Of a stretch of DNA of 32,690 nucleotides, positions 1-16,564 are shown piece after piece. Source of the stretch: a virus. The notes beneath the pieces are model-generated. The model was given only the letters and a program-made list of their open reading frames with translations. It had not been told where the DNA came from and made no database searches. Every line of letters begins with the position of its first letter. Position 1 is the stretch's first letter. Location of the stretch: UHGV virus genome UHGV-0100625; one strand, given 5' to 3'. The position numbers and the translations under genes are program-made.

Positions 1-113
1 TGGCGGAGCGGGAGGGATTCTTTTTCATGATTATAATATACTTATACGAATAATGTTAAGTATTTTGTACAGTTTCTTTCCTACATTACAAGATTAAGAT
101 CATGTTGGTGACG

Positions 114-869
114 TCAACAAGATGATCCGTCTTCGTTTTGCGGGAAACGGCAGCGGAACAAGGCGTCCATTGCGCGGGCCCGCTCGGATTTCGGTATGTT
201 TGTTGGGCGCGGGTTGCCGAAGGTAACCATCCAGAAATCCGCGTATTTCTGCGGAGTCACGGCGATGCTGAACCAGTTCCAGGCCGTCCACTTCCCTTCC
301 CGGTAAAAGGGCGTCCAGGGTTCATCAAGGCGGATTTGTTCCGTGGGGAAGTGATTCTGAACCGCCCGGCAGATGGTAAGGTCTTCCGGAGCGAGCGGAG
401 GAAGGTCAGTCTGTTCCAGTTCCTCCGCCGCCAGTCTGGCCGCCCGGCCGCTGATGGCGTAACACGGCCCATAGGCGGAACGTTCGGAAGGATGGCTGGG
501 GACCTGGTATCCGGAGGCGTGAAGAGCCAGCCCATGGCGCTGCATGTCTCGGATCCAGTCGCCCGACAACAGGAGCGTGTCGGAGTCGATTTTGACGATG
601 ACGTCATCGTCCTCCGCTTCCCCGGCCAGCGTGGAAATGATGCCCCGGACGCATTCCGGCCCGCGCAAGTTGCCGTTCCTCGGGAAGCTGGTTTGACAAT
701 ACCGCGCCCCGGCTTCAACAAGGGCGGTTCTGGCGCGTTCAGCAATGGGGGCGGATTCATCGTCCGCCACCGTGATGACGGCTTCCGGGATGGCCGCCGT
801 AGCGCACCGGACGCAGACGAGAGCTTCATCGGCGTCGCCGGCATAGGTGAATAGGTAAATTCTGATCAT
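114..869 (-). CDS. family-2 (GT-A fold) glycosyltransferase
   Basis: 251-aa ORF. N-terminus IRIYLFTY...VITVADDES...DDVIVKIDSDTLL matches the GT2 Rossmann-like core with a DxD-type (DSD) motif. No TM segments. ATG at 869 checked. Last gene of the minus-strand late operon. Confidence 0.55.
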   Translation of the reverse strand: MIRIYLFTYAGDADEALVCVRCATAAIPEAVITVADDESAPIAERARTALVEAGARYCQTSFPRNGNLRGPECVRGIISTLAGEAEDDDVIVKIDSDTLLLSGDWIRDMQRHGLALHASGYQVPSHPSERSAYGPCYAISGRAARLAAEELEQTDLPPLAPEDLTICRAVQNHFPTEQIRLDEPWTPFYREGKWTAWNWFSIAVTPQKYADFWMVTFGNPRPTNIPKSERARAMDALFRCRFPQNEDGSSC

Positions 870-881
870 GATGTTGTCTGA

Positions 882-3026
882 TTAGGCTGGCCCGTAGGGG
901 TAGAAGGTTCCTCCGAAGACCGGGATCTGTATCATTCCCATGGCGTATTGCGTCACCTGGTCATCTTCGATGTCGGCAATCAGGAAGGAATAGTCGAAGT
1001 TAACGCCCGGTTTTTCTTCGGCAAGCCTGATTGGGTACACCGTCCCCGGAATGCCGGAGACGTCAACGCCCGTCAATTTGGCGTCCTGGTCAAAGTGAAC
1101 GTTGAGCCATACTTCCCCGCTGGTTTGGGTGAGCTGCACCCACGAGGACCCGGAACTGCCCCCCTGCGGGTATTTGCCGAGCAGATTCCCGTTCAGATAG
1201 AGCGCGCCGGGCTTGATTTGCGCCCCGGTGACGGCTCCCGCCGTATCTTTCTGCACCCGCACCTGGAAGCCGTATTCCGGCGCGGGCGTGGCTTCCCCCG
1301 TCGCCGTCGTGATGTGCTGGCTGATGGTAGGGGATTCCGGCTTGGGGTCAAAGACGTATTCCGTCGATTCCGGCGCGCCCTGCATGTTTTCCAGCGTGGA
1401 TGAAATGTTAGAAACAGAATTAACTTCATTTAGCGAAATCAAATCTTCCACCCCGAGTTGATTTGGTGAACCGTAGGACAACGTGACGACGTTGGTCTGC
1501 AGGTCGCGGTTCACCGTCTGGATCATGGTGTTGATGTTCTGCCATGCCGGGTTCCCTCCGAGAAGGGAGACGCGGCGGCCCATGTATTGCCGCGTTTGAG
1601 CATCCCCCAGTGCGACAAAGGATATAGAGCCGTCCCAGGGCAATTCCTGCATGGATTCCCACACCGTTTTGGCAATGTCCCCATAGGGCACACCTTCCGA
1701 CGGTTCCGGCGATTCCCCTTCTTCCGGCCCGTTGGAGGGCTGCTCCCCGTTGTAGATGCCGTCGATGGGGTAGCTCGCAAAGGGGCGGTCCATGGTGACC
1801 AGATCCACCGAGAATTCTTCCCAAAAGCAGGGCACACCCTGCAAGGTCCCCACATTCTTGAATTTCTCCCGCCACTTGGCAGGGGCGCTTTCCGGGATGG
1901 CGAGACGCTGCTTGATGGTGGCATTGCACCACTGCGGCCGGATGGATTTGGTATGAATTTGCCCATCCGTCAGTTCATAGCCCGTGGCCGTGGTATTATA
2001 GCCCTTCGGTTTGTCTTCCTCCGTTCCGTCCCAGGGCTTCCCGGTGATTTCCGGAGTTGGGTCATAGGCCGCAATGGCTCCAACGTCTTTCATCCATGGG
2101 AAATGATTTTTCCAGAAACTGTTGATCATGTCGTTCTGGTCAATCCGGGCCCCCGTCACTTTCATGCGCTGGTAGGACAGACTGCCGGCCCTGGTTCCCT
2201 GTACCGGTTGAGGATCTTCTACCGGTTCTCCTGTAGAATTAAACTTAGAATAATAGAAGTCTACAGACGTTCGGTAAACGATGGAATGCGGTAAGGTCGG
2301 GTCTCCGTCTTCCGGGTATTTGGACAGGTAAGAGACGCGATAGCCGTTGCTTCCGGTTGTTTCCGCGACAATCGCCACGCAGGGAGGCACGAGGTCGGCG
2401 CGTGGGACAAGGGAAACGTCCATGGCTTTAACATCGTTGGAGGGCTGCAATGGCAGGGAGATAGGCGTCAGGACGTCATAGTCCGTGATGATCAGCTTGG
2501 GCCGCGCGCCGCTGTAGTCGTAGTACGTGGCCATGCGGGGCGACCAGCGGCGGATGGATTGAAGAAGGTTGCCCAGCGTATCGCATGAGGCATTCCACGG
2601 GATCAGCATTTTGTCATCGCTGATCTGCAGCTCGTAGTCTGCGGGGTGGTGTTTGGCCAGGTTCAGCACCCGGGAGAGCGCGGAGGAAATGCTTATTTTA
2701 GGGATGATTTCATTCCCGCCGCCGGTGCTTTGCCACATCGAAAAGACCGGCTTCCATTCGGAATCCAGGGCAAAGCAGTTGTCCAGGTAATACCAGGGAT
2801 CGGAAAAGACGATTTTCCAGGCACGGGATGCGCCGCTGTAGGTCTTTTCGATGCTGGAAACGAGGCCGGCAAGAATGGTGTTCCCGTTTTGGGAGATGGT
2901 GACGGTATCGAATTGCTGGAAGGGCAAGACTTCCCCCAGCGTTCGGACGGGATAAACTGCGGTAATGGTGGAGGCGGCAAAACTTTGCTGGTCGTGGGTC
3001 AGGCTGGACGGCTTGAGAGCCAGCAA
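882..3026 (-). CDS. phage distal tail / putative receptor-binding (host-specificity-like) protein
   Basis: 714-aa beta-rich ORF with no enzymatic motifs. It is the last large structural ORF after the tape-measure-like gene. Assignment is by size and position only. Confidence 0.4.
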   Translation of the reverse strand: MLALKPSSLTHDQQSFAASTITAVYPVRTLGEVLPFQQFDTVTISQNGNTILAGLVSSIEKTYSGASRAWKIVFSDPWYYLDNCFALDSEWKPVFSMWQSTGGGNEIIPKISISSALSRVLNLAKHHPADYELQISDDKMLIPWNASCDTLGNLLQSIRRWSPRMATYYDYSGARPKLIITDYDVLTPISLPLQPSNDVKAMDVSLVPRADLVPPCVAIVAETTGSNGYRVSYLSKYPEDGDPTLPHSIVYRTSVDFYYSKFNSTGEPVEDPQPVQGTRAGSLSYQRMKVTGARIDQNDMINSFWKNHFPWMKDVGAIAAYDPTPEITGKPWDGTEEDKPKGYNTTATGYELTDGQIHTKSIRPQWCNATIKQRLAIPESAPAKWREKFKNVGTLQGVPCFWEEFSVDLVTMDRPFASYPIDGIYNGEQPSNGPEEGESPEPSEGVPYGDIAKTVWESMQELPWDGSISFVALGDAQTRQYMGRRVSLLGGNPAWQNINTMIQTVNRDLQTNVVTLSYGSPNQLGVEDLISLNEVNSVSNISSTLENMQGAPESTEYVFDPKPESPTISQHITTATGEATPAPEYGFQVRVQKDTAGAVTGAQIKPGALYLNGNLLGKYPQGGSSGSSWVQLTQTSGEVWLNVHFDQDAKLTGVDVSGIPGTVYPIRLAEEKPGVNFDYSFLIADIEDDQVTQYAMGMIQIPVFGGTFYPYGPA

Positions 3027-3132
3027 ATCATTGATGGTGATGTCGTGGTTCCTGCTGCTTGTAAAATGGTTGTGTTACGGAAGTAATGTTACCCTATCTT
3101 GTCGGGTTCGGAAACGTGTTTACGTGTCCTAG

Positions 3133-3540
3133 CTATTTATTTTTATTTAATAGAACATAGAAGGTATACCACATGATTCCACCAATTATTCCCCCGATAA
3201 TATAGCCTATTCCTACCATAGATAAACCTGATATCAAGCTTACTATTCCCATAATTACTCCACCACCAACTGACAATGTTGCTAAGAATATGAGGATTGT
3301 AGCAAGAACAGAATGACTTTCTTTATAAGCTGAAGCCTTTTTAGGGGAATGTATGATGCGACTATTTTCCCTCAATAATTGCAACGAAAATAGCAATTCC
3401 TCAGCCTTGAACCATTTCTTTGTCCCTTCTGCACAAATTAACGTGTCGGGAGAAATTATGTTTTTCTCAACTAATCTTCTTAACTCCGTGAGAGCAATCG
3501 GACCCTTCACAACATTTCCGAAAAAATAGTGATACCGCAT
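3133..3540 (-). CDS. DUF4339 (GYF-like) domain protein with two C-terminal TM helices (moron)
   Basis: N-terminus YHYFFGNVVKGPIALTELRRLVEKNIISPDTLICAEGTKKWFKAEEL fits the DUF4339 pattern. C-terminus is Gly-rich and hydrophobic (IIGGIIGGIMWYTFYVLL). GC here is about 35% against about 60% in flanks. Confidence 0.5.
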   Translation of the reverse strand: MRYHYFFGNVVKGPIALTELRRLVEKNIISPDTLICAEGTKKWFKAEELLFSLQLLRENSRIIHSPKKASAYKESHSVLATILIFLATLSVGGGVIMGIVSLISGLSMVGIGYIIGGIIGGIMWYTFYVLLNKNK

Positions 3541-3573
3541 AAACTTGGGAATTTACACTATTCTCATTTTTTT

Positions 3574-5421
3574 TCAATGCTTTCTTCTTCTTAATCCTTC
3601 TATATTGTTTTTAGCTTGTTCCAAATCTTTTTTCATTTGCTCCAAAACGTTTTTCAGATTTTTTAGCTCTCCTGATTGAATATTAATTAGCAATAGAGCT
3701 TCTTTCAGGTTTCCGGAAAGTCCGTTCAAAATAGCCTGATTAGTAATACCCTGTTGCCTTAAGGCATCTCTAAAAGCTACTCCAATTTGTTCATATTCTC
3801 GGGAATCTATTACTCCATCGGAAGCGGCTTTTTTCACCTGTCCACGTATAGCTTCAGATGCAGCTCTAACAAGTGCCTTTTGTTGGTCGGTGGCAGATTT
3901 TCCAGCAGCCACTATAAACTTATCTAAAGCCTCTGAAAAATACTCATTATTCTTTTTAAGCTCATCGGTTTTCGTCTCTATATCTTTCTTTCGCCCCTTA
4001 ATTTCATTCTCGGCATCTTCTCTTTGTCTTTCTTCTCTAATGTTTTTTCTCTCTTGCGCTTGAGCTGTTCTTCCTCGTTGTTCATCAACTGCTGCTTCCG
4101 ATTCATTTTTCTTTTTTATATTAGAAAAGTTTCTCGTTGCCTTTTCTTCTTCATTTATAGCTTCTATTAAAGATTTTTCTGCCTCTTCATATTCTTTTTC
4201 AAGAGTTTCTATAGTTTTTGCATAAGATTTATAGGCATTACTATATCCACCTTCTCCAGAAGTTCCATTACCTAAAGAAAATCCTCTATCCTCAAGGGCA
4301 ATATCACTCTTCTCTATAACTTCCTCTGTATTAAATATTCTATCTCTTCTGGCTTCTGCGTTTCTATAACCATATTTATCAAGTAAGGAAGAGATTCTTT
4401 TGTCGGATATATCTGTGCCTTCAACAAATTGAGATACAGAATCATAAAGATTTTTATCGCTAACTTGTTTGTACCTAATAGCTCCTAAATTTACTTCTTT
4501 ATCTCTTAAAGATATTAAATAGTCATATAAATCATTTCTCAAAGAATTGGTCTGTTCTTCTACAGAAACTTCTGCAGCTCGTCTTTCTTCAAGGGACATT
4601 ATATCATCATTAATAGAGGCATTTTGCAAGGCGGCCTTAGCTTCTCTTTGTCTCCGTGCTGCATCTATTCTTTTGTTTACTGCATCAGAAACATCCAAAC
4701 TTGCTGATTCTTCTATTTCACCTCTTCGTCTTGCACGACTATCTAATTCAATTCCTTCTATCAAACGAGCTTTTCTTCGTTCTGCGTCTGCTCCTTCTCC
4801 TAATAGTCCATTTGCAAAATCTTCTTCTACCTTTAACCGGGCAATCTCTGCTTCATCGTCTTTGATTCCTGATTCTAAAGCAATCAATTCTTTACGATAA
4901 TCCAAAGAATATTTTAAAGCTTCTGCTTCTAGATGTCGATAATCTGCTATTTTCTTTGCACTATCTAAAGCCTCTCTTAAGAATTGTTCGTTTTGATTTT
5001 GCCGTGATGTTTCTTCAACCTCTGCTTTTAATTTTTTAAAGGCCTTTGCTTCCTCTTCAATGGCCTTAGCGAGTTCTTTGGATTTTGCTTCCGTGTTTCC
5101 CATCCACTCGTAAAGCTTCGCTCCGGCAAGGGTGGCAATGGAGATGGCCCCGGCCAGCCCTGCCCCGCCTCCGAAGCCCATCACAAGCCCAGGAATATTG
5201 TTCATGATACCCCTGATGCCGTATTGCAAGTCGTCAAAAAAGTAGGCAGCCTGCAAGGCTCCCTGCCCCATATTCTTCACGCTCCGGGTTGCCTGCTGGC
5301 TGTCTTTATCCAGCTGCTCCGTAGACTTGTTCAGGGAGTCAATTTTCTGTTTCGCTTCTTCCACGCCTTTTCCGTCCAGCGTGGACTTGAGCTTGATTTC
5401 GATTTCTTTCTTGGTGGCCAT
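3574..5421 (-). CDS. tail tape-measure-like protein (long coiled-coil; compositionally chimeric)
   Basis: 615 aa. N-terminal 110 aa contain a Gly-rich hydrophobic segment (GLVMGFGGGAGLAGAISIATLAGA). The rest is K/E/R-rich coiled coil. It sits after a chaperone-like gene and before the distal tail protein. The 5' 320 nt are GC-rich; the remaining ~1.5 kb is AT-rich. Confidence 0.45.
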   Translation of the reverse strand: MATKKEIEIKLKSTLDGKGVEEAKQKIDSLNKSTEQLDKDSQQATRSVKNMGQGALQAAYFFDDLQYGIRGIMNNIPGLVMGFGGGAGLAGAISIATLAGAKLYEWMGNTEAKSKELAKAIEEEAKAFKKLKAEVEETSRQNQNEQFLREALDSAKKIADYRHLEAEALKYSLDYRKELIALESGIKDDEAEIARLKVEEDFANGLLGEGADAERRKARLIEGIELDSRARRRGEIEESASLDVSDAVNKRIDAARRQREAKAALQNASINDDIMSLEERRAAEVSVEEQTNSLRNDLYDYLISLRDKEVNLGAIRYKQVSDKNLYDSVSQFVEGTDISDKRISSLLDKYGYRNAEARRDRIFNTEEVIEKSDIALEDRGFSLGNGTSGEGGYSNAYKSYAKTIETLEKEYEEAEKSLIEAINEEEKATRNFSNIKKKNESEAAVDEQRGRTAQAQERKNIREERQREDAENEIKGRKKDIETKTDELKKNNEYFSEALDKFIVAAGKSATDQQKALVRAASEAIRGQVKKAASDGVIDSREYEQIGVAFRDALRQQGITNQAILNGLSGNLKEALLLINIQSGELKNLKNVLEQMKKDLEQAKNNIEGLRRRKH

Positions 5422-5442
5422 GGTGGTCTGGATGGTAGGGTG

Positions 5443-5724
5443 TTATCGTTGAGCGCTGACTTCTTCGATGACGAAAGCGGGCAAATTCCCGGACGTGAGC
5501 GCCGTCCGGGATTCTTCCACTCGTTGCTTCAGGAATTCCAGCATCATCATATCGCGGATGATGACGCCGAAGGCATGGGAAGGATTGACGCCGGCGGATT
5601 CCGCAGCCTCAAAGACGCCTTCACGCATCTCCTGCGCTGCCTGTTTCAGATTCGGGGTCTTGTTGCATTCTTCGGCGAATTCAATGAAAAGCCGTTCAAT
5701 TCCGTGTTCTTGTTGTTCGTTCAT
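5443..5724 (-). CDS. tail assembly chaperone-like protein
   Basis: Acidic 94-aa product (MNEQQEHGIERLF...) directly upstream of the tape-measure-like gene. The maximal ORF 5443..5850 overlaps the upstream gene, so the ATG at 5724 was chosen. Assignment is positional. Confidence 0.3.
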   Translation of the reverse strand: MNEQQEHGIERLFIEFAEECNKTPNLKQAAQEMREGVFEAAESAGVNPSHAFGVIIRDMMMLEFLKQRVEESRTALTSGNLPAFVIEEVSAQR

Positions 5725-5743
5725 GATGATGGTTGATATGTTG

Positions 5744-7258
5744 TTAAGAAGGGTAATCAATGGAAGTATAGCGGATGGTGAGGGATAAGCTGAACGTGCG
5801 TCCGGGGGCGGTAGCGGCGGCCGGATAAGCATCATTGCCAAGGCCGTCAAATGACTGAGGGTTGTTCAGCATGGCGTTCTTCTCATAAATGCCGTTCTGA
5901 TTTTCTACAACCAGCTGCCAGTCCGAACGAATTTCCACGCCTGGAGAAAACGTCCATTTCACATTTCCGCCCTCTCCGGTGGAAACAGCCTCATTGCTGG
6001 TCGCCAGAAGAGAAGCCGTTCCATTTTCCACCCGGTAAAGCGACAACGTGCCTGAATTGGCGCTCGTAGGATTCGTCGTCACGATTTCCTGCAGCGTGAT
6101 TCCCTTTCCTTCCGGGTTGCCTTCCGGGAAATCGGGATAAACGTCCGAGGGGATGAACCGCCAAGACCTGTATCCCATCGGGACATCCGTATACTCTCCC
6201 TGGGGAGGTGGGAGCGTATAATTGCGCGTGACCAGTCCCGCGCGCAGCACTCTAAGGTACGCTTTTTCCCCGGAGTCCTGTTGTGTCGCGGTGATTCTTA
6301 CTGTTCCCGACGCTCCCTCGTTGGCGGAGACTGCCACCTTGAATGATCCGTTGTTGCCGTTGACCACATCGGAGATGACGACAGAGGAACTTGGAGAACT
6401 GGCCGTCCAGTCAACGCTGACCTCTCCCGGACTGTAAAAAGAAGACACATTCACGGAATAATCGCCTCCCGTAATGGGAACCTGCAATTCGGTTGGAGAA
6501 AGGCTGAATGAGAAAGTAGGAAGCGGCTGACGAAATTCAACCTCAACAGCCTGCCCGGTTCCGTCCTGAATGACCTGGAGCGACATGGTCCTGTCCTCGT
6601 CTCCTTCATTGGCGGAGACTGCCACCTTGAATGATCCGTTGTTCCCGTTGACCACATCGGAGACGGTCAACCCTTCGGAGACGTCGGCTATCTGCCACCC
6701 CTGCCCGACCGGACCCGGGGTAAACGAAGATTCCACGTTCACGGTATATTCACCACCCTGGACGGGCACGTCAAAAGAAGCGGGCGTCACGGAAAAAACC
6801 CAGTTGGAATTGTCTGGTGTCCTGTCGGTGACGGTCATGGTCAGCGTGACCAGCAGGCACAGATAGCCGTCCTCGGGAGACGGAGGCGGGACGAAGTTTT
6901 CGGTTTCAAACTGGTAGCCGGTGATCACGGCGGCAAACCGCCATTGCGGCTGTTCGGCGAATTGCAGGTACAGATAGCCGTTCTGGTTGCTGGCCAGCCA
7001 CAGAGCCATGTTCTCCTGATAGGTGGCCATGTCCTGATAATCGACGAACCAGCGATAAAACGCGACGGTGCGCTGCTCCACGGCGCTCCCAAGCCCCTGC
7101 GCGAACGCCCTGGGACCGTCTACCAGCGACGTTTCAAACGCTTCCATGGAACCGCCGAAACGGGGCGGCTCCGGCGTATCGTCCCAGAGGTTGAGAAGCT
7201 GGATCTGGTTGCCGGCGGCGGAAACGTAGCGGGCTGCGTAGGGGGCCTGGTAGGTCAT
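5744..7258 (-). CDS. virion structural protein with two tandem BACON/Ig-like domains (candidate major tail protein)
   Basis: 504 aa. The motif GGEYTVNVESSF..W....VSDVVNGNNGSFKVAVSANEG occurs twice, about 96 aa apart, matching the BACON-type pattern (S..GG..V.V.S..W...G.NG...V.V.AN..R). The gene sits immediately upstream of the chaperone and tape-measure-like pair. Confidence 0.45.
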   Translation of the reverse strand: MTYQAPYAARYVSAAGNQIQLLNLWDDTPEPPRFGGSMEAFETSLVDGPRAFAQGLGSAVEQRTVAFYRWFVDYQDMATYQENMALWLASNQNGYLYLQFAEQPQWRFAAVITGYQFETENFVPPPSPEDGYLCLLVTLTMTVTDRTPDNSNWVFSVTPASFDVPVQGGEYTVNVESSFTPGPVGQGWQIADVSEGLTVSDVVNGNNGSFKVAVSANEGDEDRTMSLQVIQDGTGQAVEVEFRQPLPTFSFSLSPTELQVPITGGDYSVNVSSFYSPGEVSVDWTASSPSSSVVISDVVNGNNGSFKVAVSANEGASGTVRITATQQDSGEKAYLRVLRAGLVTRNYTLPPPQGEYTDVPMGYRSWRFIPSDVYPDFPEGNPEGKGITLQEIVTTNPTSANSGTLSLYRVENGTASLLATSNEAVSTGEGGNVKWTFSPGVEIRSDWQLVVENQNGIYEKNAMLNNPQSFDGLGNDAYPAAATAPGRTFSLSLTIRYTSIDYPS

Positions 7259-7264
7259 GGGCGG

Positions 7265-7795
7265 TTACTGGTTGAGGTAGTCCTTCACCCCTTCGGCAAT
7301 GGCTTCGGCAATGCGTCCGGGATGGTCCTTCATCATGGCGGCGTTTTCAGGATTGGTGATAAACCCGCATTCGCACAGCACCCACGGGCAGCGGGTCCTT
7401 TTCAGGACGGCGAGGCCCGGACGCGACTGAACGGTATTGGCCCGGCCGGGAAGCAGGCGGGAAAGAGGTTCCGCGATGCAGATGGCCAGCCTGCTGCCCT
7501 TGACGCTGCCCGGGTAAAAACACACATGGGCCCCATGGGCCTGGGGATTGTCGGAAGCGTCGCAATGCAGAGAGATGCCGAAGTCATAGCCACCTTCATT
7601 GGCGGCCTTGATAGTGGCGTTCAAATCCTGGGCATTGCTCATGCCCGGAAAGTCAATCACGTCCACCTTGGCGCCCAGTTTCTGAAGCATGGGGGCAAGG
7701 CGTTCGGCGATCGTCACGGCGACGGCGTGTTCTTCAAGACCGTTTCCGCGGGATCCGGTGTTGTTGGCATGGCCAATATCAATGGCTATTTTCAT
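7265..7795 (-). CDS. N-acetylmuramoyl-L-alanine amidase (Amidase_3 family) endolysin
   Basis: MKIAIDIGHANNTG... opening and downstream conserved His/Glu are typical of Amidase_3. An AAGGAG SD lies 6 nt upstream of the ATG at 7795. No signal peptide. Confidence 0.75.
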   Translation of the reverse strand: MKIAIDIGHANNTGSRGNGLEEHAVAVTIAERLAPMLQKLGAKVDVIDFPGMSNAQDLNATIKAANEGGYDFGISLHCDASDNPQAHGAHVCFYPGSVKGSRLAICIAEPLSRLLPGRANTVQSRPGLAVLKRTRCPWVLCECGFITNPENAAMMKDHPGRIAEAIAEGVKDYLNQ

Positions 7796-7860
7796 GAGTA
7801 TTCTCCTTTAATGGTTGGTTGTTAATATGATTGAACTTGTAAGAAAAACTTTACAGTTGG

Positions 7861-8013
7861 TCAGTGTTCATACATCCGAAGGAACACAAGGGTCGCAATG
7901 GGGAAGCAGAACGCGGCAATGCCCGCCGTCGTGTCGCCGCACGCGGCAAAAACGCCGGCCATCACGCACCCCATCAGCGGCAGAAGAACGGAAGGGGACA
8001 GTAGCTTATTCAT
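7861..8013 (-). CDS. small hydrophobic peptide (lipobox-like LMGC; holin/antiholin or spanin-like candidate)
   Basis: 50-aa ORF not in the track: MNKLLSPSVLLPLMGCVMAGVFAACGDTTAGIAAFCFPIATLVFLRMYEH. Its ATG (8013-8011) forms an ATGA overlap with the stop (8012-8010) of the upstream gene. It lies between the TM proteins and the amidase. Confidence 0.3.
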   Translation of the reverse strand: MNKLLSPSVLLPLMGCVMAGVFAACGDTTAGIAAFCFPIATLVFLRMYEH

Positions 8014-8261
8014 TTTTCCAGTTTTCTTTCTATGTTTTCAATTCTGACGGCAAGAAGTTGGATCGCCTTGGCCGTCTCGACCTGGGCCTTTGTCTGCATG
8101 GTCATCAGGTCACAAAGCCGGTCATTATGGTGTCCCATGACATCTCCGATGTACCAGCAGGACGCGCCGCAAATGACCAGCGACAGCATGACGCAGGCAA
8201 ACACGGGTGACGCCTTGGCAAAATCCATGAAACGCGCCGGCACTTCGGAGAGTTTGCACAT
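8010..8261 (-). CDS. holin-like / i-spanin-like membrane protein (N-terminal TM plus C-terminal coiled coil)
   Basis: 83 aa. TM segment ASPVFACVMLSLVICGASCWYI, then an amphipathic KAQVETAKAIQLLAVRIENIERKLEK. Adjacent to the endolysin. Confidence 0.35.
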   Translation of the reverse strand: MCKLSEVPARFMDFAKASPVFACVMLSLVICGASCWYIGDVMGHHNDRLCDLMTMQTKAQVETAKAIQLLAVRIENIERKLEK

Positions 8262-8265
8262 GGTG

Positions 8266-8736
8266 TTACTTCTTGGAGGGAATTACCTGCACAACGGGCG
8301 GAACGTCCGTTTCCGGCTGTGCTTGGGAATAGGAGATATGCCCCTGCTCAATGACGAGGCAGGAGCCGTCCTTGCATACCTCCGTGCGGCCCGGCGTCAC
8401 GTCTACGGAATGACCGCAGCCGGAGAGGGACATTCCCAAGGTGCCAATGATAGCCCCGACAATAACCGCTCCGGCTGCATATAAAGCCTTTTTCCACAAG
8501 CTAGATGCGCCGGATGCCTTAATACCGAGGTAGTCTTTCACATCCCCCAGCGCATGCTTACCAATGATGGAGAGAGCAGTATTTGATACAGCAATCCATC
8601 CTTTCTGTTCGTTTTCGTTCAGATCCGTCCAGTGAGGGATTGGCGTGTTGGATTCATTGTGTGCCTGGGCTGCATAGTACATGTGCATTTCACGGGCTAT
8701 AGCCTCGGTGTGATTACATTGATTTTTGTTAGTCAT
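8266..8736 (-). CDS. membrane protein of the lysis-region cluster
   Basis: 156 aa. Internal segment KKALYAAGAVIVGAIIGTLGMSLSGC resembles a lipoprotein signal with an LSGC lipobox, preceded by a soluble N-terminal domain. ATG at 8736 checked. Confidence 0.35.
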   Translation of the reverse strand: MTNKNQCNHTEAIAREMHMYYAAQAHNESNTPIPHWTDLNENEQKGWIAVSNTALSIIGKHALGDVKDYLGIKASGASSLWKKALYAAGAVIVGAIIGTLGMSLSGCGHSVDVTPGRTEVCKDGSCLVIEQGHISYSQAQPETDVPPVVQVIPSKK

Positions 8737-8749
8737 AGAATTATGTTTG

Positions 8750-9160
8750 TTATTGATTGGGGGTAGTGAAGTATTTGAAAAAGTCCACGGCGGCGGGATC
8801 CGTGATCACAAAAGCCGGGTAGTCCGAGACTGTAAAAATCCTGCGGCCTTTGGTCTCCGCATGGACGGCCTCAACGGTCAAAGACACCGCATCAATCATT
8901 GTATAGGCACCATCCTCCGCAAGGGTCAGGACATCTTTTCCCAGCCTTGCCCATACCTGGACGGCTTGCCAGTCCTCGCCCAGTTCCACCAGAGCGGCAA
9001 CGACGGCGGCCATGGCCGGGGTCTGGTTCGCCGGAATTTCGTCCTGCGTATAGCGGTCTATGCGGGTGTACCCGTCCGCGTCCTGATAAATGGCCGTCAA
9101 CGTGAATTCCTGCCAGTTGCCGGGCCGAGGGAACAGTATTTGTATCTCCGAAATATTCAT
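8750..9160 (-). CDS. hypothetical protein (possible fibre assembly/chaperone)
   Basis: 136-aa ORF. Its ATG at 9160-9158 overlaps the collagen-like gene stop (ATGA). No recognisable motif. Confidence 0.3.
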
Positions 9161-11118
9161 GATTCTTCAATGGGTACGTTAATATCTTCAAAAGCCGCCG
9201 TTTCTTCGGTTTCAATGGCATTGACAGCCATTGCTTCCAATGCGTGATAGGTTGGATTGGTCAATCCATTGGAATAAAGGTGCCTGGTGCCTGTGCCCGC
9301 GTCGGCTGAAAGGGCATATGTTTTCTCATTGCGCGCGTCGATAATCAGGGTGCTTACGCCTGTTCCTGCCTCGAAAGCGATGAAGCCGCGGAGAGAAGCT
9401 ATCTTGAACAGGGTATTGGTACTGCCGCCTCCCAGCTCCATATAAAGAGCCGCCTTTTCCTCCCGCACTGCTGTACTCGGCAGCCCGCTCTGCATGTAAA
9501 TAAGCCTGTTCAGCCCGTTTGGCATCAGCTCATTATGGCCTACCGGAAGAAATACGGTTGTCGTCTTCACCTGCCAGTGTCCAACGGACGATACATAAAA
9601 GATTTCCCTTACTCTGATTTCATACCCCTTGCGGACAGTATCGTAAGGAGTATTGATGGTAACATCGATGATTTCCCCATGGTTGACGGCCAGCTCGTTC
9701 CCCGGAATCATAGAATAAGAATCCATCGTCAACCCGGTTCTGTTGGTTTTTGAGCCGCGGCCTATGCCAAAAGTAAATTTAGCGAAGGCTGTCGCGTTGA
9801 CCGCAAGGGAAAATCCGCACACGGAACTGTAATTAAATTGACCGTTAGGCCCTATCAGGGGAATAACCGCTGACCCGTACGCATTGGACCCGGCAGAAGC
9901 TGCGCCCACCGAAAAACGCTGCGTCAACCCGGCAAGAGTACCGTTGGAAGATTTAGAAATGGAACCCGCGACTGTGATCGAACTGGAATTAAGGTATATA
10001 GGCTGAACCAACGCTGATACAGCACCGGCCAATCCTAACGTATAAAAGCGATTAACCGCCCCCGTATCGGTCGGCGCACCGACAGCAAGAGGGATGTTGA
10101 CGCCTCCGTTGGCGTTGATGGCGCTTGAAAACGTGGATGTCCCCGCGCAGTTGAAGCTGGCGCCCTGGCTGATATTCAGGATTCCAGTCTCTACCATGAA
10201 TGTCCCTCTCAGCCATCCGCCTGACCGAAGATCGACCGACTGGTAAAACCGGGTGATCCCGTAAATCTGATTCAGCGTGCCGGCGCTTCCGCTGCCGTCC
10301 GGGTTGTTGACCACCAGAGGCCCGTTCACGGTAGCTGACTCCGCGGTCAGGGCTCCCCCGATATTCACATCGCCAACGTTGGATGTCAGAGTACCAGGAT
10401 CTCCCTTTTCCCCTTGAGGGCCCTGGGGCCCCACCGGACCTTCCGGCCCCTGCGGGCCTTCGGGACCTTGCGGGCCGGCCGGGCCCGTATCTCCCTTCGG
10501 TCCCTGCTCTCCCGTTTCGCCCTGCGGCCCCCGTTCCCCGGTTTCGCCGCGGGGGCCCTGCGGCCCTTCGGGGCCGGTTTCGCCCCGTTCTCCCTGCGGG
10601 CCTGCCGGCCCTTCGGGACCGACATCCCCGCGGGGAATGGTGAAGGAGAGCTTATAGGAGCCGGCAGCCTCCCCTTTGACGGCTTCCGCGGCGGCGGGCG
10701 TCCCCGGCTCCCCGGTGGTGACTTCGTCAACGGACAGGCTAAAATTCTCCGCGTACTTCTTGGCCTGTTCCGCGTACCAGGCGGCGCTGGACGCATTATC
10801 AAGCACTACCTGCACGCAGCCGCTTCCTTCCGGCAGCTGCACGACGACCGCGCCCGCCACAGCCTGCTGCTCGCCGGGCAAGTCCGGCGTTACCCGGCCC
10901 GAAGAAACAAAGCAACCGTAGAGAAGGGGGCTTTCTTCGCTGCCGTCGTCCATGAAGACGTCATAGGACCACATGCCCGCAGGCACCGACTCCCAGGAAA
11001 TCACGCCGTTTCCCTCGTCGTCTCGGGAAAATCCGAACTCCGTCACGCCCGTCTTGAGGCGGACGGCTCCGCGCAGGGTGACGCCGCTCATATCGACGGG
11101 GTCGCCCTGGAAATCCAC
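9157..11118 (-). CDS. collagen-like (G-X-Y repeat) fibre protein
   Basis: 653 aa with about 26 consecutive GXY triplets ([28 protein letters not shown]...) encoded around 10390-10640. These are flanked by an N-terminal domain and a large beta-rich C-terminal domain. Confidence 0.7.
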
Positions 11119-11188
11119 GACGCGGACGACCAGGGACTGGTTCAGCCCCGTGACGGTCCTGATATCATATTTGCCTGCCTGCTGCCTG

Positions 11189-11223
11189 AAAAAAACAAGG
11201 ATGCGGGGGCGTCATCCGCCCCC
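11189..11223 (-). terminator. rho-independent terminator (partial/attenuator)
   Basis: Minus-strand RNA GGGGGCG-GAUGA-CGCCCCC (alternative stem GGAUG...CAUCC) followed by UUGUUUUUUU. It lies between the 185-aa gene and the collagen-like gene. Confidence 0.4.
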
Positions 11224-11235
11224 TGGTGAAACACG

Positions 11236-11793
11236 TCAGGAACCCGGCGTCGTGGTCACGTCCTGCACATTGGAGGGCGTGAACTGGTACTTGCCGCGAT
11301 AATCCATTTCGAACTCGAACTGTGGTGAAGCAATCGCCGTGGTGTGCTCAGGGTCCTGCAGCAGGCGCAAGGCGCCATGCGCCGTTCCGACCAGATAGAT
11401 CGTACCCACGTCATTCTGATACCAGAAATGAAGATACCCTTCGATCTTGTTGTCGCCGCCATGTCCGACGGTGGTCGATTCCTCGCCATTAGCGGGAGGC
11501 GCTCCCAGGGCGAAAGACAGCTGGAACCATTCGGGAGACATGTCCGGCGTGGTGAAGGTCATCCGCTTTCCGGTCGTCGTGTTCTTGCGCTGCTGGCGAT
11601 ATCCCAGCGCGCCTCCGTAAAAGCGCGTTACTTCCCCTTCGACCTGGGTGGCAACGGATTGGAAAGCCCCCAAAAGCCCGAAACTCACCCAAGGCTGTTC
11701 AGGCCCGGCTGTCGGATCGGCGGGCGGAGCCGTGGGAGGCGTCGGAAACTGGTCCGGGCCGGTGACGTAAGAAGCTCCCTCGTCTTCGGTCAC
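11236..11793 (-). CDS. hypothetical virion protein (possibly a highly expressed structural protein)
   Basis: 185-aa ORF immediately followed by the hairpin plus U-tract. No motif recognised. Confidence 0.4.
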   Translation of the reverse strand: MTEDEGASYVTGPDQFPTPPTAPPADPTAGPEQPWVSFGLLGAFQSVATQVEGEVTRFYGGALGYRQQRKNTTTGKRMTFTTPDMSPEWFQLSFALGAPPANGEESTTVGHGGDNKIEGYLHFWYQNDVGTIYLVGTAHGALRLLQDPEHTTAIASPQFEFEMDYRGKYQFTPSNVQDVTTTPGS

Positions 11794-11900
11794 CTTGATG
11801 CCGTCGGGGAGGAAAATCGCCAGAACGCCGGTAATCTGCGGCGTTACATTGCGGTTGGTAAATGTGGGATCGTATGTAGTAGCCCTGATGCTTGAAATGG

Positions 11901-12098
11901 TTAGTAGATGATGGTTGCCTTGCCGTCGGCTTCCAGCTTATCGGCGAGTTCTTTCGTAACACGAATATGCGCTCCTTTCAAGAACGTTGAACGCCCTATG
12001 CGCACTTCTTTGGCGAGAATGAGGATGTTCGTGTTGATGACGGCGGCCTGCTCCGTCTTCTTTTCCGGTTCGGTGTTGGCTGCAGCTGCTTTGCTCAT
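11901..12098 (-). CDS. small hypothetical protein
   Basis: 65 aa. ATGA overlap (12098-12095) with the upstream gene. Confidence 0.3.
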   Translation of the reverse strand: MSKAAAANTEPEKKTEQAAVINTNILILAKEVRIGRSTFLKGAHIRVTKELADKLEADGKATIIY

Positions 12099-12361
12099 TT
12101 GATGTCAACGAGGTTAAGGGTGGACAGAGCTTCCGCGACGTTCGCGGGAAGTTCCGGGGTATCGGTTTTCATGGAGAGGCTGAGAACCAGCCCTCCGTCC
12201 AGTTCGGCGCGGGTGCGAATGACCCGCACGGCCTTCTTGTCAGTTGTTTTCTTCTTTTCGTCCGGTGCGGACGGCGTTTTGCCGGCGGTTTCGGAAGATT
12301 CGTCCGGCTTCGGGGCGCTCTTCCGCACGGCCTTCTTGTCAGTTGCTGATGCTTTGTTCAT
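12095..12361 (-). CDS. lysine-rich small protein with internal repeat
   Basis: 88 aa. K/P/S-rich disordered N-terminus with repeated TDKKAVR, encoded by a 23-bp direct DNA repeat. Folded C-terminus. Confidence 0.4.
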   Translation of the reverse strand: MNKASATDKKAVRKSAPKPDESSETAGKTPSAPDEKKKTTDKKAVRVIRTRAELDGGLVLSLSMKTDTPELPANVAEALSTLNLVDIK

Positions 12362-12869
12362 AGAATTCTGGCTTGGTTCTCATGTTAATATTAACCGGGA
12401 CACGGTAATCCACGGTCAAAACGTTCATTTGCCGCTTCTCGCCGTCAATGATGGCAGAGGAGGAAAAACGGCCTTTGATTTTGGGTTTCATCATCGCCGG
12501 TGCGGAAAAGGGAAGAGGATTCCAGTTCCACAGGGCTTCTTCAATCACGTCCCCCACCGCCCGAAGATAATAATCAGGCGTCAGGCATGCCGCCGGGAAC
12601 AGGGACGCATTGTGATAAATGGAGGCGATGATGAAATACTGACGCCACATCGTCGGCGCTTCCGTTTGTCCGTGCCCGTCCTGGTATTCTGCCGCGTCCC
12701 CGGGACACACCAGAACAACGCCGTTGTTGCCCATCGCCGACATGATGATGTCGTTGGCGGCGTACTGTGGATCGAAGGGCCGTTCGAAGATGTGGCAGTT
12801 CAGCGCTCCCAGGCTCTTGAGGCGCTCAATGAGGCGCCGGCACATGGTTTGGTCGATGGAGGGTATCAT
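12339..12869 (-). CDS. hypothetical phage structural protein
   Basis: Maximal ORF 12339..12977. The ATG at 12869 gives an ATGA overlap with the upstream stop (12868-12866), so a 176-aa product was chosen. Confidence 0.4.
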   Translation of the reverse strand: MIPSIDQTMCRRLIERLKSLGALNCHIFERPFDPQYAANDIIMSAMGNNGVVLVCPGDAAEYQDGHGQTEAPTMWRQYFIIASIYHNASLFPAACLTPDYYLRAVGDVIEEALWNWNPLPFSAPAMMKPKIKGRFSSSAIIDGEKRQMNVLTVDYRVPVNINMRTKPEFYEQSISN

Positions 12870-13534
12870 GGTTCGTTGTTTACGATGTTGGCAAGGTAGG
12901 TTTCCGCGGCGCGCTGCGCCATCAGTTCCATCGTCGGGAGAATTCCCGGCGTGGGCGGGATCGTGACTTCGCGGCACAGCACGTAGAGCACGTCGCCCGT
13001 TCTGGCTCCCTGCCGGAACAGCTTGCGGGCCGCTTTCTTTCCGGTGGCTGATTGCGCCGCCTTAAGGATGAGGACGCCGGTCACATTGCCGTTGCGTCCG
13101 CCGTTTTTGGAGGGGATGAATTGCAAGTCCTCTTTGCGGAAGCCGGCGCTGTAAATGCTCCGGGCTCCGCCATGGCCGCGGGGGGCGTTGATGGTGGGGA
13201 TAGCCAGGTTCCGGATCGGGTTCCCGGTGATTTCCGAGGTGCGCCCCGTGGGGCGGAGCGGGCCGCCCAGATAACCCTGCGTGCCGATCCAGTGAAGACC
13301 GATGCCGCGCCAGGCGATGGAGACGCTGACGCCCTCGGCGGTTTCTTCCATCGTGGTGGCGTCCGCCGCTCCGTCGTAGTAGTCCTTGCCCTGCTGTCTC
13401 AGGGTTTCCTGGATGAGCAGGCTCAAGGCGACGCCGGCCTTGCGGATGGCGGTTTTGTGCCGGGCCGCAGACGGATCCATGTCGGCAAACGTCCGGTCAA
13501 TCGCGGTTTGGTCAATATGGACGGTTACAGCCAT
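12866..13534 (-). CDS. hypothetical phage structural protein
   Basis: 222 aa, GC-rich, in operon. Confidence 0.4.
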   Translation of the reverse strand: MAVTVHIDQTAIDRTFADMDPSAARHKTAIRKAGVALSLLIQETLRQQGKDYYDGAADATTMEETAEGVSVSIAWRGIGLHWIGTQGYLGGPLRPTGRTSEITGNPIRNLAIPTINAPRGHGGARSIYSAGFRKEDLQFIPSKNGGRNGNVTGVLILKAAQSATGKKAARKLFRQGARTGDVLYVLCREVTIPPTPGILPTMELMAQRAAETYLANIVNNEP

Positions 13535-14661
13535 TTGGAGGGTAAAACGTAAGGGGTAGGCAGTTCCACGCGGAGGGCTCCGGCAACGTCTTCCACTTTC
13601 TTGACGTGCCCGGAATTAAGGCGCCAGGTGAATTCCCCCTCTTCCTTTGGGGAAACGGGGATATACTGGCGGGAGGTCGCGGCGGCCACGTCTGCGGGCC
13701 GGGCGTACCAGACGCCTTCCGGCTCGGAGGACAGGCGGTCCAGCAGGCGGTCCAGGTAGAGGGCCGCCAGCGTTCCGGCCACGGCTCCCCCGGCTGCCGC
13801 CAGGCTGAAGGCCTGGGCCTGGCGCAAGGGGATCTCTTCCGGGAAATCCCCGGACAGGACGTCCGCCAGTTCCGCGTCCGTGTAAGGGCGCGTGCCGTTC
13901 GGGTCCGTGTAGGCAAAGGTGGTATTGCCGTCGTTCCCGGTCTTGACGCGCACGGCGTCTTTCAGGATGCGGCGGATCTTGTTCCTGTTGGATTCCGTCA
14001 CGCCTTTGGCGTTGCTTTCCAAGGTTGCGTTGAAGCTGGGGGGAGCGGGACGGACGCGCGACACGGCCAGCCCGGCCGCGCGGGCTTCTTCGGCGCCCAC
14101 GGGGGCAATGTTCATGCCGGACAGGTAGTCAAAGGGCGGGTAAGGCGTGCCAAAGCGCGAAAGGCGGATCCAGATATCGGAGGCCGCCAGCGCATAGCCG
14201 ACGATTTCCCCGCGGATGAAGCCGGATGATACCGCTTCCGTGGCTTCTTCTTCCAGCCCGGCCCGGGCACGGTTCCAGCGTTCGGCCCAATAGCGCGGGT
14301 CTTCCCGCCCCTGGGAGCGGTAAAATTTGAAGGCGGCCGTGTCTTCGTCCTGCATCCAGTTATACCAGTTCCGGTAGCCGTGAGCCATGGCCGCGTTAGT
14401 TTCCATGACGACCTGGATGCGGACCCATGAGGACAAATCCTGAATGCCTCCCTGCCCCGTCGCCGGGGGGCGGTAGCCCTGCTGGCGCAGGGCTTCGCGG
14501 ATGGCCCGCTGCGCTTCCTCGTAGCTCAAGGCCCCCGAGGCGACCTGGGACGCCTTGTCCTCAAAATCGGACAGGATGACGCCGGGTTCCACCCCGGACA
14601 CGAAGAAGGCGCGTTCGGCGTAGTCGTTGGCGATCATCTCCATTTGGGCGGCGGTCATCAT
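13525..14661 (-). CDS. hypothetical virion/morphogenesis protein
   Basis: 378 aa. ATGA overlap with the upstream gene at 14661-14658. No motif confidently recognised. Confidence 0.4.
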   Translation of the reverse strand: MMTAAQMEMIANDYAERAFFVSGVEPGVILSDFEDKASQVASGALSYEEAQRAIREALRQQGYRPPATGQGGIQDLSSWVRIQVVMETNAAMAHGYRNWYNWMQDEDTAAFKFYRSQGREDPRYWAERWNRARAGLEEEATEAVSSGFIRGEIVGYALAASDIWIRLSRFGTPYPPFDYLSGMNIAPVGAEEARAAGLAVSRVRPAPPSFNATLESNAKGVTESNRNKIRRILKDAVRVKTGNDGNTTFAYTDPNGTRPYTDAELADVLSGDFPEEIPLRQAQAFSLAAAGGAVAGTLAALYLDRLLDRLSSEPEGVWYARPADVAAATSRQYIPVSPKEEGEFTWRLNSGHVKKVEDVAGALRVELPTPYVLPSKWL

Positions 14662-15134
14662 CGGTAGGTGCTTCGCATGGGGTTGAACCAGGGGCGGCGC
14701 GTGTAGCGCGGCATCATGTAGGCGGGATCCGCGGGCGCGGAGCCGTCCACGCTTTCCGGCAGCATGTCCCCTTTGGCGTAGAGCGCCAGCATCGCGTCCG
14801 CCGATTCGGCGGCCTTCTGGCGCGTCTCGGTCAGGTTAAGCTGGTAGCGCAGGTAGAGCTGCCGGATGATCAGCGGCCATGCCAGGGACCGCATGCTTTG
14901 CGGAATGTCGTACATGCCGCTGTTCTGGAGCGATTGCCGCAGGGCGAGGTTGTTGGCCAGCGCCCCGCGGATGGTCATGCAGACATCGTTGACCGCCTCC
15001 ATCATGACATCCCGGTAGTCCAGGCTGCGCTGTTCCCCGGCTGTTACCAGGGCATCGCGTTCGGCGGTGTTGAGGCCGAGGAGCCGATCGGCTTCATCGG
15101 TGGAAATCGTGGACCACGCGGGAAAGGCGGACAT
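14658..15134 (-). CDS. putative head-tail connector/head completion protein
   Basis: 158 aa, directly downstream of the major capsid gene. Assignment is positional. Confidence 0.35.
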   Translation of the reverse strand: MSAFPAWSTISTDEADRLLGLNTAERDALVTAGEQRSLDYRDVMMEAVNDVCMTIRGALANNLALRQSLQNSGMYDIPQSMRSLAWPLIIRQLYLRYQLNLTETRQKAAESADAMLALYAKGDMLPESVDGSAPADPAYMMPRYTRRPWFNPMRSTYR

Positions 15135-15155
15135 GATGGAGGCGGGCGTTGGGGG

Positions 15156-15992: not shown

Positions 15993-16112
15993 GGAATCCC
16001 GTTCCGTATTCCCCGCGCCAACGGAGAAAGAGGTCAGGACGTCCGTGAACTGATAAGCTGAATAAAATAGATTAGCCCTTGTGGTTGGTCTTTCTAATGG
16101 TTAGAGGTGATT

Positions 16113-16544: not shown

Positions 16545-16564
16545 TGGTTTTTAGCGGTTAGTGG

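Follow-up and report, generated by a model that had tools for sequence, protein, structure and literature searches.

A low-GC block among the tail genes of an Akkermansia phage

We analysed a stretch of 32,690 nucleotides (nt) of the virus genome UHGV-0100625, the whole of which is referred to below as the window, with attention to a block of low G+C (GC) content situated among its tail genes. The block comprises the greater part of a 615-codon open reading frame (ORF), whose product we call the tape-measure-like protein, and the gene that follows it, encoding a small protein with a GYF_2 domain (formerly DUF4339) and a transmembrane (TM) hairpin, here called GYF-TM. Every gene of the phage lies on the minus strand, in the order integrase (at 31371-32567, a marker of a temperate phage), RecT, exonuclease, methyltransferase, large terminase, portal, protease/scaffold, major head protein, collagen-like fibre, a holin-like ORF, an Amidase_3 endolysin, a protein of 504 amino acids (aa), a 93-aa protein, the 615-aa protein, GYF-TM, a 714-aa protein (the putative hub) and a 251-aa protein. 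The features in and around the block are listed in table 1.

Table 1. Features of the low-GC block and its surroundings (GC3, GC content at third codon positions).
Feature	Position	Strand	Basis or remark
Complete tape-measure-like ORF, 615 aa	3574..5421	-	Mosaic: conserved N-terminal domain plus variable C-terminal coiled coil
Conserved N-terminal domain (codons 1-105), putative left recombination anchor, host-like composition	5107..5421	-	GC3 0.70
Left junction zone (codons ~106-120)	5062..5106	-	DNA alignment; ends of blastn high-scoring segment pairs at 5056 and 5088
Cassette part 1: variable C-terminal coiled coil (codons 121-615 plus stop), class A allele	3574..5061	-	GC 0.354, GC3 0.20
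Cassette part 2: GYF_2 (DUF4339) plus TM-hairpin gene, 135 aa	3133..3540	-	Pfam PF14237
Cassette-specific 3' intergenic stretch, differing between classes	3072..3132	-	Alignment
Conserved 45-nt leader of the hub gene	3027..3071	-	Identical in classes A, B and C from AACCATTTTACAAGCAGC... on
Putative central hub/tail-tip protein (gp27/Mu gp44/VgrG-like), 714 aa	882..3026	-	Foldseek and synteny
93-aa ORF immediately upstream of the tape-measure-like gene	5443..5724	-	93-96-aa gene kept here in relatives

The interval 3000-5500 of the window is 100% identical to the corresponding part of Akkermansia phage DTMo-2021a (CP084202.1, host A. muciniphila NBRC 114322), a record that carries no annotation. 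Outside this interval the identity to CP084202.1 ranges over 88-99.9% (98.7% over 12-9222, 87.9% over 10066-12239, 93% over 12329-22827 and 99.9% over 24329-26224), and ~1.5 kb near 22.8-24.3 kb of the window finds no match in it at all. Because the identity varies in this way, the window represents a mosaic relative of CP084202.1 and not the same genome. Our literature search retrieved no description of this phage family.

Sliding-window analysis gave a GC content of 0.30-0.43 over 3001-5100 and of 0.50-0.66 on both sides. The block proper, 3072-5055 (1984 nt), has 35.7% GC, the value for the whole window being 54%, and is essentially the lowest-GC 2-kb stretch of the window (minimum 0.355, starting at 3056), followed by the lysogeny region at 0.408. 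The left-hand step falls inside a gene: along the 615-codon ORF, GC3 stays at 0.68-0.70 until about codon 105 and then takes values of 0.05-0.35, codons 1-105 having GC 0.546 and GC3 0.705 and codons 122-615 GC 0.354 and GC3 0.202. The GYF-TM ORF, with GC 0.363 and GC3 0.34, belongs to the same low-GC stretch. Amino acid bias of a lysine- and glutamate-rich coiled coil accounts for almost none of the drop and can be ruled out as its cause, since the amino acid sequence combined with the background codon usage of the phage predicts a GC3 of 0.657 (GC 0.536) for codons 122-615; the corresponding expectation for GYF-TM is GC 0.509 and GC3 0.691. An account in terms of expression level or codon adaptation is ruled out as well, the step being intragenic. 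The codon usage of the block departs accordingly from the background of the phage, with AGA making up 63% of arginine codons (6% in the background), ATA 55% of isoleucine codons (5%) and TTA 42% of leucine codons (2%).

Two further features of the genome touch on this codon usage. The phage carries a gene for tRNA-Arg (anticodon CCT, reading AGG) at 19049-19122 on the minus strand, between the large terminase and portal genes; we considered it as an adaptation to the codons of the block and rejected this idea, as only 5% of the arginine codons there are AGG. The lysogeny/early region, 28000-32690, is also low in GC (GC3 0.32-0.51) and has raised proportions of AGA, ATA and TTA, so the phage has two composition compartments, the block being an island of the AT-rich type among late genes.

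A previous, sequence-only reading of this DNA had noticed the low-GC block and described the tape-measure-like ORF as continuous, both of which are borne out by the GC and codon-usage profiles and by the uninterrupted 615 codons. Its estimate of about 35% GC for GYF-TM and for the remaining codons of the ORF agrees with our measurements, whereas its figure of about 60% for the first codons has to be lowered to ~55%. It had also allowed that the shift might reflect amino acid bias with the same GC3 on both sides, which is not what the values of 0.705 and 0.202 indicate. Finally, it had placed an in-frame junction near 5040-5100 and suspected a mosaic; comparison with related prophages, described in the following section, indeed reveals sharp breaks, located at codons 107-121 (5062-5103) and at 3072.

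A two-gene cassette exchanged between phage backbones

At least seven classes of the block can be distinguished among related phages (L numbers are our labels of the loci; lengths are those of the tape-measure-like protein and GC3 values those of its C-terminal part): class A (the window, L008 and L010; 615 aa; 0.20-0.22), class A' (L002; 616 aa; 0.26), class B (L005; 656-666 aa; 0.44-0.47), class C (L015; 613-628 aa; 0.42-0.45), class D (L004; 562 aa; 0.26), class E (L029; 573 aa; 0.18) and class F (L040; 575 aa; about 0.26). The N-terminal domain, characterized by the motif KNMGxGALQAAYFFDDLQYGIRGxxNNIPGLVMGFGGGAGLAGA, exhibits 87-100% aa identity across the classes. The C-terminal part encoded in the window is 100% identical in L008, 93% identical at the aa level in L010, L011 and L018 and 69% in class A', and reaches 21-37% identity to classes B, C, E and F. 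The transition between the two parts is abrupt. The left-hand breakpoint lies at ~5103 in comparison with class A', at ~5088 with class C and at 5062/5061 with class B, the window and L005 being identical base by base up to 5062 (that is, up to ...ELAKA and before IEEE) and diverging beyond. Blastn homology to carriers of classes B and C ends at 5056-5088 and resumes at 3071; on the right-hand side all classes converge at 3072, a point 46 nt upstream of the hub gene's TTG start. The junctions coincide with the GC step, and the intragenic one falls at a domain boundary. In L005 and L007 the N-terminal DNA is 99-100% identical to that of the window, yet the C-terminus and the GYF-TM gene cannot be aligned.

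The block, moreover, is found in different surroundings. In L008 it is 99-100% identical to that of the window, the upstream flank being only 66-86% identical; in L018 it is 86-96% identical and the downstream flank 58-73%; and L005 shows the opposite, with flank segments adjacent to the block up to 99% identical (79-99% overall) and the block itself unalignable. Clusters of the C-terminal part are spread over three clusters of the hub gene. Rank correlations (Spearman) are 0.58 between the N-terminal part and the hub, 0.55 between the C-terminal part and GYF-TM and 0.03 between the N- and C-terminal parts.

A broader survey pooled IMG/VR, genome and metagenome scans and yielded 89 loci of the Akkermansia type with a complete gene. 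The module order is kept in the relatives (amidase, 407/504-aa protein, 93-96-aa protein, tape-measure-like protein, one or two GYF-TM proteins, 714/716-aa protein, 241/251-aa protein). All 89 loci exhibit the GC3 step (0.55-0.79 in the N-terminal part and 0.18-0.47 in the C-terminal part), the fall occurring after the same motif, KNMGxGALQAAYFFDDLQYGIxGxxNNIPxLVxGFGGxxGLAGA, and all 89 have GYF-TM downstream of the tape-measure-like gene, at a distance of 12-47 nt except in L066, where the distance is 570 nt and the tape-measure-like ORF is truncated. The class of the C-terminal part and that of the adjacent (first) GYF-TM correspond one-to-one in 89/89 loci. A distant lineage represented by L038 and L042 displays the same drop in GC3, although its N-terminus is ~120 aa longer and homologues of the hub and the 251-aa protein lie upstream; despite the permuted gene order of L042, the tape-measure-like gene there still directly precedes GYF-TM, and both are low in GC.

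Outside the gut the picture is different. None of ~30 relatives from Luteolibacter, other Verrucomicrobiota, Singulisphaera and environmental metagenomes has a GYF-TM gene, and their GC3 difference is mostly below 0.1, with a few values of 0.15-0.25. Wherever the available sequence is long enough, loci from Luteolibacter, an Akkermansiaceae metagenome-assembled genome, Verrucomicrobiota and Singulisphaera have the hub homologue directly after the tape-measure-like gene. Because GYF-TM is absent from these relatives and the hub gene comes next, GYF-TM is an insertion at a deep level, and the low GC and GYF-TM are both derived traits common to all sampled gut Akkermansia phages. The sequence-only reading had regarded the DUF4339-TM gene as an unusual passenger; it is instead universal in the clade, and its class tracks that of the tape measure C-terminus.

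Within classes, the ratio of non-synonymous to synonymous substitution rates (dN/dS) is 0.05-0.12 for the N-terminal part and 0.11-0.42 for the C-terminal part; GYF-TM has values of 0.22-0.27 and the hub of about 0.10, except in one pair of close relatives (0.22). Both genes of the block are thus under purifying selection, with a somewhat weaker constraint than the flanks, and the clade keeps at least seven divergent classes under such selection. The values for the C-terminal part also agree with the earlier notion that the fusion is functional. Since synonymous divergence (dS) within class A already amounts to 0.30 while GC3 stays at 0.20-0.22, the composition of this class is old and stable and does not mark a fresh import. 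The idea of a replaced tape measure C-terminus therefore survives in part: the C-terminus is replaceable, but a recent one-off event does not fit a step shared by all 89 loci and a dS of 0.30. Hundreds of full-length homologues of the 615-aa protein in Akkermansia (prophages) display the same architecture in a single lineage, the very pattern that the sequence-only reading had named as speaking against a recent replacement.

Taken together, we consider it probable that the region 3072-5061 is the class A allele of a two-gene replacement cassette of temperate Akkermansia phages whose parts have the matched function proposed below. The comparisons themselves show a divergent, clade-wide and functional block that lies between conserved anchors and changes hands as a unit. 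The cassette consists of the distal four-fifths (codons ~121-615) of an all-helical tape-measure-like protein and the next gene, for a predicted small inner-membrane protein. Homologous recombination within two anchors, the N-terminal domain on one side and the hub leader with the 5' part of the hub gene on the other (the right anchor), would swap the whole block between backbones and would leave both an in-frame junction and a GC step. The cassette is best described as a conserved, swappable tape measure distal end plus GYF-TM that is specific to gut Akkermansia phages. It can be viewed as a variation on known phage mosaicism and on morons adjacent to tape measure genes, to which we add an exclusion hypothesis. 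With the modular mosaicism of tailed phages it shares the sharp breakpoints, the conserved flanks, the occurrence of the same module in different backbones and the intragenic junction at a domain boundary; it differs in that every exchange involves the same fragment of a gene together with one further gene, in the clade-wide composition anomaly and in the existence of at least seven allele classes. Irrespective of any exclusion function, it illustrates cleanly, in a natural setting, a module boundary inside a gene, with the GC step exactly at the border between anchor and block.

Origin of the low GC content

The low GC could stem from import out of an unsampled lower-GC phage pool or from in-situ AT drift in a block unable to recombine between classes. 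A fully in-situ origin, by AT-biased mutation lacking GC-biased gene conversion or by selection for rare codons in a hypervariable segment, is in our opinion unlikely. Bacterial O-antigen (rfb) clusters and the central region of flagellin genes are, like the cassette, divergent, represented by multiple alleles, flanked by anchors and lower in GC than the genome, although the cassette belongs to a phage, measures only 2 kb and takes in part of a structural gene; a low GC arising in place would parallel that of the O-antigen clusters. The step lies exactly at the boundary between a recombining conserved anchor and a non-recombining divergent block, the lysogeny region of the same phage is low in GC too, no donor was found, and seven non-gut relatives without GYF-TM (L046, L115, L118, L120, L122, L129 and L130) exhibit the milder C-terminal dip of 0.15-0.25 GC3 mentioned above. 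Against this origin stand the uniform GC3 of most non-gut relatives and the lack of a single equilibrium value, as classes B and C have a GC3 of 0.42-0.47 with roughly balanced changes and class A one of 0.20. Polarized substitutions in class A (24 AT>GC versus 4 GC>AT) lean, if anything, towards amelioration, the test being biased by a saturated, AT-rich outgroup, a weakness that bears on our own interpretation of the cassette as well.

Concerning import, relatives with a lower GC across the whole genome do exist, namely L132 (42.5%), L133 (43.5%) and L135 (46.8%), the last being a prophage of Akkermansia sp. N21116 in which a tape-measure-like gene of uniform GC3 with a different N-terminal domain is followed by a gene for a GYF-like protein with four TM segments. 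These three indicate that the C-terminal module joins different N-terminal modules in hosts of different GC. As donors of the low-GC DNA they were rejected as too distant, with 25-43% identity to any cassette class, and their GC3 (0.38-0.47) resembles that of classes B and C and not that of class A. Homologues of the GYF-TM of the window were detected only in contigs of the Akkermansia-phage type, a plasmid collection contained no match to the cassette, and scans of viral contigs with P0130, P0168 and P0174, as well as a first metagenome scan, returned nothing. The claim of the sequence-only reading that the DNA came from a low-GC phage thus finds no donor to point to. A recent replacement from a phage of a low-GC host, with the DUF4339-TM gene as an unrelated passenger moron, would account for the sharp in-frame break in composition and homology, the foreign-looking codon usage, the absence of GYF-TM from non-gut relatives and the existence of the lower-GC relatives, L135 with its GYF-like gene included, but we deem it very improbable given that 89/89 loci and the distant lineage share the step at the same motif together with GYF-TM, that the class A block is old, that the lower-GC relatives are far from every class and lie above class A in GC3, and that GYF-TM homologues are confined to Akkermansia-phage-type contigs. 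The locus may be useful for testing why hypervariable cassettes are AT-rich.

L132 is peculiar in two other respects. A Mu-type portal gene (PF06074, E 1.7e-57; 3555-4961) is located between its amidase and tape-measure-like genes, and the gene after the latter (8619-8969) encodes a zinc-ribbon plus TM protein instead of GYF-TM; because of this gene, the slot seems to attract small membrane proteins of various kinds.

Proposed function of the cassette and the neighbouring genes

The GYF_2 assignment of GYF-TM rests on a match to PF14237 with 34.3 bits (cutoff 25.8 bits, E 2e-08), above the gathering threshold, covering residues 3-48 and profile positions 1-46 of 50; the same assignment is precomputed for its homologues. 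By hydropathy and charge, the protein lacks a signal peptide and starts with a soluble part of ~75 aa, to which a hydrophobic hairpin of ~50 aa and then a basic C-terminal tail are joined; on this basis we predict an inner-membrane protein with both termini inside the cell (N-in/C-in) and a cytoplasmic GYF domain. A weak promoter-like site, TTGAAA-16-TAAATT at 3577-3550, occurs just upstream of the gene. We found no function for bacterial DUF4339 in the literature. As a side observation, the class B GYF-TM (L005, 8027-8464) gives a weak PADLOC match to the candidate defence system HEC-01B (E 8.8e-4, 17 bits), the other classes giving none.

In long-tailed phages it is the C-terminus of the tape measure protein, located at the tip of the tail, that engages the cell envelope first. 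The best explanation of GYF-TM, we infer, is an action on the very step that involves the tape measure end whose class it tracks: it would act with the distal end of the tape measure, which would leave the tail first and meet the inner membrane. More specifically, we tentatively propose by analogy that GYF-TM may be a cognate superinfection-exclusion protein, expressed from the prophage and blocking genome injection by phages with cognate tape measure types in a manner similar to HK97 gp15; this is our leading suggestion for its role, though one we hold short of probable. Escape and counter-escape would then preserve several matched pairs in the population. The complete scheme is more doubtful: the cassette might constitute a self-matching lock-and-key pair in which GYF-TM excludes phages of its own type, with frequency-dependent selection maintaining many such pairs. 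What the analogy demands of a superinfection-exclusion protein, a small inner-membrane protein of a temperate phage, agrees with the predicted topology and the integrase gene. GYF-TM also resembles a moron in the sense of Juhala and Hendrix, as summarized in PMC3594210: some related phages have it and others lack it at this position, and its GC content of 0.363 is unlike that of the hub gene (0.57), yet it equals that of the adjoining 3' part of the tape measure gene.

Two characterized proteins are instructive here. In HK97, gp15 is a small exclusion protein of the inner membrane, the product of a moron next to the tape measure gene, and its effect varies with the tail region that the incoming phage carries (PMC3594210). 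Both it and GYF-TM are small, predicted to reside in the inner membrane and encoded in the tail operon directly beside the tape measure gene, with a composition unlike that of the neighbours. However, the gp15 gene lies upstream of the tape measure gene, has its own promoter and terminator and encodes a YebO-related protein, whereas GYF-TM is encoded downstream, has a GYF_2 domain and is followed by no terminator that we could find; in addition, the composition anomaly extends here into the tape measure gene, and GYF-TM co-varies with the tape measure alleles. SieA of P22 is likewise an inner-membrane prophage protein that blocks DNA delivery, and escape from it maps to the C-terminal portions of ejection proteins gp16 and gp20 (PMC10883804). 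P22 is, however, short-tailed, its sieA gene lies apart from the genes it targets, two SieA types compared in that study revealed no difference in target specificity, whereas the class pairing observed here suggests type specificity, and no sequence similarity between SieA and GYF-TM was detected.

An accessory, immunity-like role of GYF-TM is favoured by four kinds of loci. Seven (L002, L003, L040, L041, L043, L100 and L104) have a second GYF-TM of another class, the two genes standing consecutively after the tape-measure-like gene and encoding 140 aa and then 147/150 aa; L004 combines an A'-type tape measure C-terminal end with only the other, non-cognate GYF class; the non-gut relatives lack the gene altogether; and a 55-kb contig of an isolate genome (IMGVR_UViG_2850266918_000004) holds two family members with different cassettes, L008 and L036, 24 kb apart, one with class A and a 135-aa GYF-TM and the other with an N-extended 887-aa class C tape-measure-like gene and a 170-aa GYF-TM. 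This contig may represent tandem polylysogeny by phages of different cassette types.

Several observations nevertheless weigh against our interpretation. The promoter-like matches do not exceed chance (8 found, 5.1±2.3 expected), and no terminator-like hairpin was found after GYF-TM. PADLOC returned no match for the GYF-TM of the window, whose sequence resembles no known exclusion or defence protein. The average dN/dS indicates purifying, not diversifying, selection. The one-to-one pairing could result from linkage alone, because the two genes are adjacent (12-47 nt), the classes share no internal DNA homology and, among the 89 loci, many duplicate one another almost exactly and do not count as independent samples.

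Alternatively, GYF-TM may be an essential structural, assembly or injection partner, such as a pilot protein that inserts into the membrane or a tape measure chaperone binding the distal end, the pairing then reflecting physical co-adaptation. The gene is universal and tightly adjacent in the clade, it keeps its place beside the tape-measure-like gene in permuted gene orders, its class matches the C-terminal type, it evolves under purifying selection and, with neither a separate terminator nor a clear promoter, it is probably co-transcribed with the late genes. On the other hand, the non-gut relatives as well as L132 and L133 manage without GYF-TM, some phages hold two GYF-TM genes of different classes, L004 pairs its A'-type end with only a non-cognate one, and a GYF domain and termini predicted to be cytoplasmic are hard to square with a virion protein. 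On balance we find a partner role unlikely.

A tape measure is the best reading of the 615-aa protein on the combined evidence: a neighbour with a putative hub fold, the canonical order of genes outside the gut clade, weak PHROG matches of relatives and a Gly/Ala-rich hydrophobic segment (IPGLVMGFGGGAGLAGAISIATLAGA) visible in the sequence. The AlphaFold 2 (AF2) model of the protein is almost wholly alpha-helical (mean predicted local distance difference test score, pLDDT, 75.8), with helices including residues 111-203 (93 residues) and 391-505 (115 residues). A profile search with the protein collected 1334 representative proteins at E ≤ 1e-3, most of which share chiefly the N-terminal 130-300 positions, and the family, which the conserved N-terminal motif defines, is present in Verrucomicrobiota and Planctomycetota. 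In the non-gut relatives two small ORFs, the tape-measure-like gene and the hub gene follow one another, which is the canonical position of a tape measure gene; the small ORFs upstream encode 93 aa in the window and 126 and 147 aa in L044, and the 93-aa ORF may correspond to a tail assembly chaperone. Three relatives (P0130, P0121 and P0129) give the weak PHROG tape measure matches (E 5e-6 to 4e-4). Foldseek searches with the AF2 model of the 714-aa protein returned PDB matches at E ≤ 1e-3 to hub or spike proteins exclusively (24/24, including VgrG, Afp8, Mu gp44/MuSo2, monocin, diffocin, 80alpha and phi812), the template modelling scores being about 0.1-0.2 and the model itself poor (pLDDT 52.9, predicted template modelling score 0.31).

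The 615-aa protein might instead be a long coiled-coil protein of another kind, from the virion or for ejection, and any consequence for tail length would then be void. Indeed, it has no match in Pfam, PHROGs, NCBIfam or PDB-sequence profile searches, and Foldseek comparison of its model with the PDB and BFVD yielded generic coiled coils only, none at E ≤ 1e-3. No recognizable tube, sheath or G/GT chaperone genes emerged from profile searches of the neighbouring proteins, and no G/GT-type chaperone frameshift was identified, no search aimed at frameshift signals having been made. The gene comes after the hub and 251-aa homologues in L042, L133 and L135 and after the Mu-type portal gene in L132. 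We regard this alternative as quite improbable in view of the canonical position in non-gut relatives, the putative hub fold of the neighbour, which would imply a long-tailed phage, the helices of 90-115 residues together with the Gly/Ala-rich hydrophobic segment, and the PHROG matches of the three relatives. As the name tape measure rests chiefly on fold type and gene position, with no family match, a consequence for tail length is only an extrapolation; on this reading, the different allele lengths (562-666 aa, and as much as 887 aa where the N-terminus is extended) predict different tail lengths.

Phages of Akkermansia muciniphila, one of the leading candidate probiotics, have hardly been characterized. 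Should lock-and-key pairs of the kind proposed exist, they would decide which Akkermansia phages co-infect or superinfect a given lysogen, amounting to a polymorphic exclusion system built into a structural gene. If the cassette sets which phages inject which lysogens, it would offer a simple genotypic marker for phage cross-immunity, polylysogeny and gut strain stability, it would represent a type-specific exclusion system physically joined to the structural protein it targets, and GYF_2 (DUF4339) membrane proteins of bacteria and phages would gain their first function.

The remaining neighbours proved refractory to annotation, as searches of Pfam, PHROGs, NCBIfam and PDB-sequence profiles gave no match for the hub or for the proteins of 504, 251, 93, 185, 222, 212 and 158 aa. 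The 251-aa protein (114-869, minus strand), for which PADLOC gave no match either, has 56% identity to its counterpart in the distant lineage L042 and is always encoded after the hub homologue. The 504-aa protein, encoded between the endolysin and tape-measure-like genes (5744-7258, minus strand), contains an internal duplication: two 63-nt stretches of its gene, 6313-6375 and 6601-6663, are 95% identical, and the protein has two similar beta-rich segments (FSVTPASFDVPVQGGEYTVNV and FSLSPTELQVPITGGDYSVNV). This region is the least conserved flank (66% identity), with a 407-aa form in relatives. The lysis genes, comprising the 83-aa holin-like ORF and the Amidase_3 endolysin gene (7265-8261, minus strand), are placed unusually, amid the tail genes, with the collagen-like fibre on one side and the tape-measure-like gene on the other, an arrangement kept in all relatives. 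In the low-GC early region a palindrome-containing, operator-like repeat (AGGTGGTTCACCACC) is present in two copies 57 nt apart, at 30320-30358 and 30377-30415, and beside the integrase gene there are two perfect 22-nt direct repeats (32601-32622 and 32662-32683), which may be arm-type or att-related sites.

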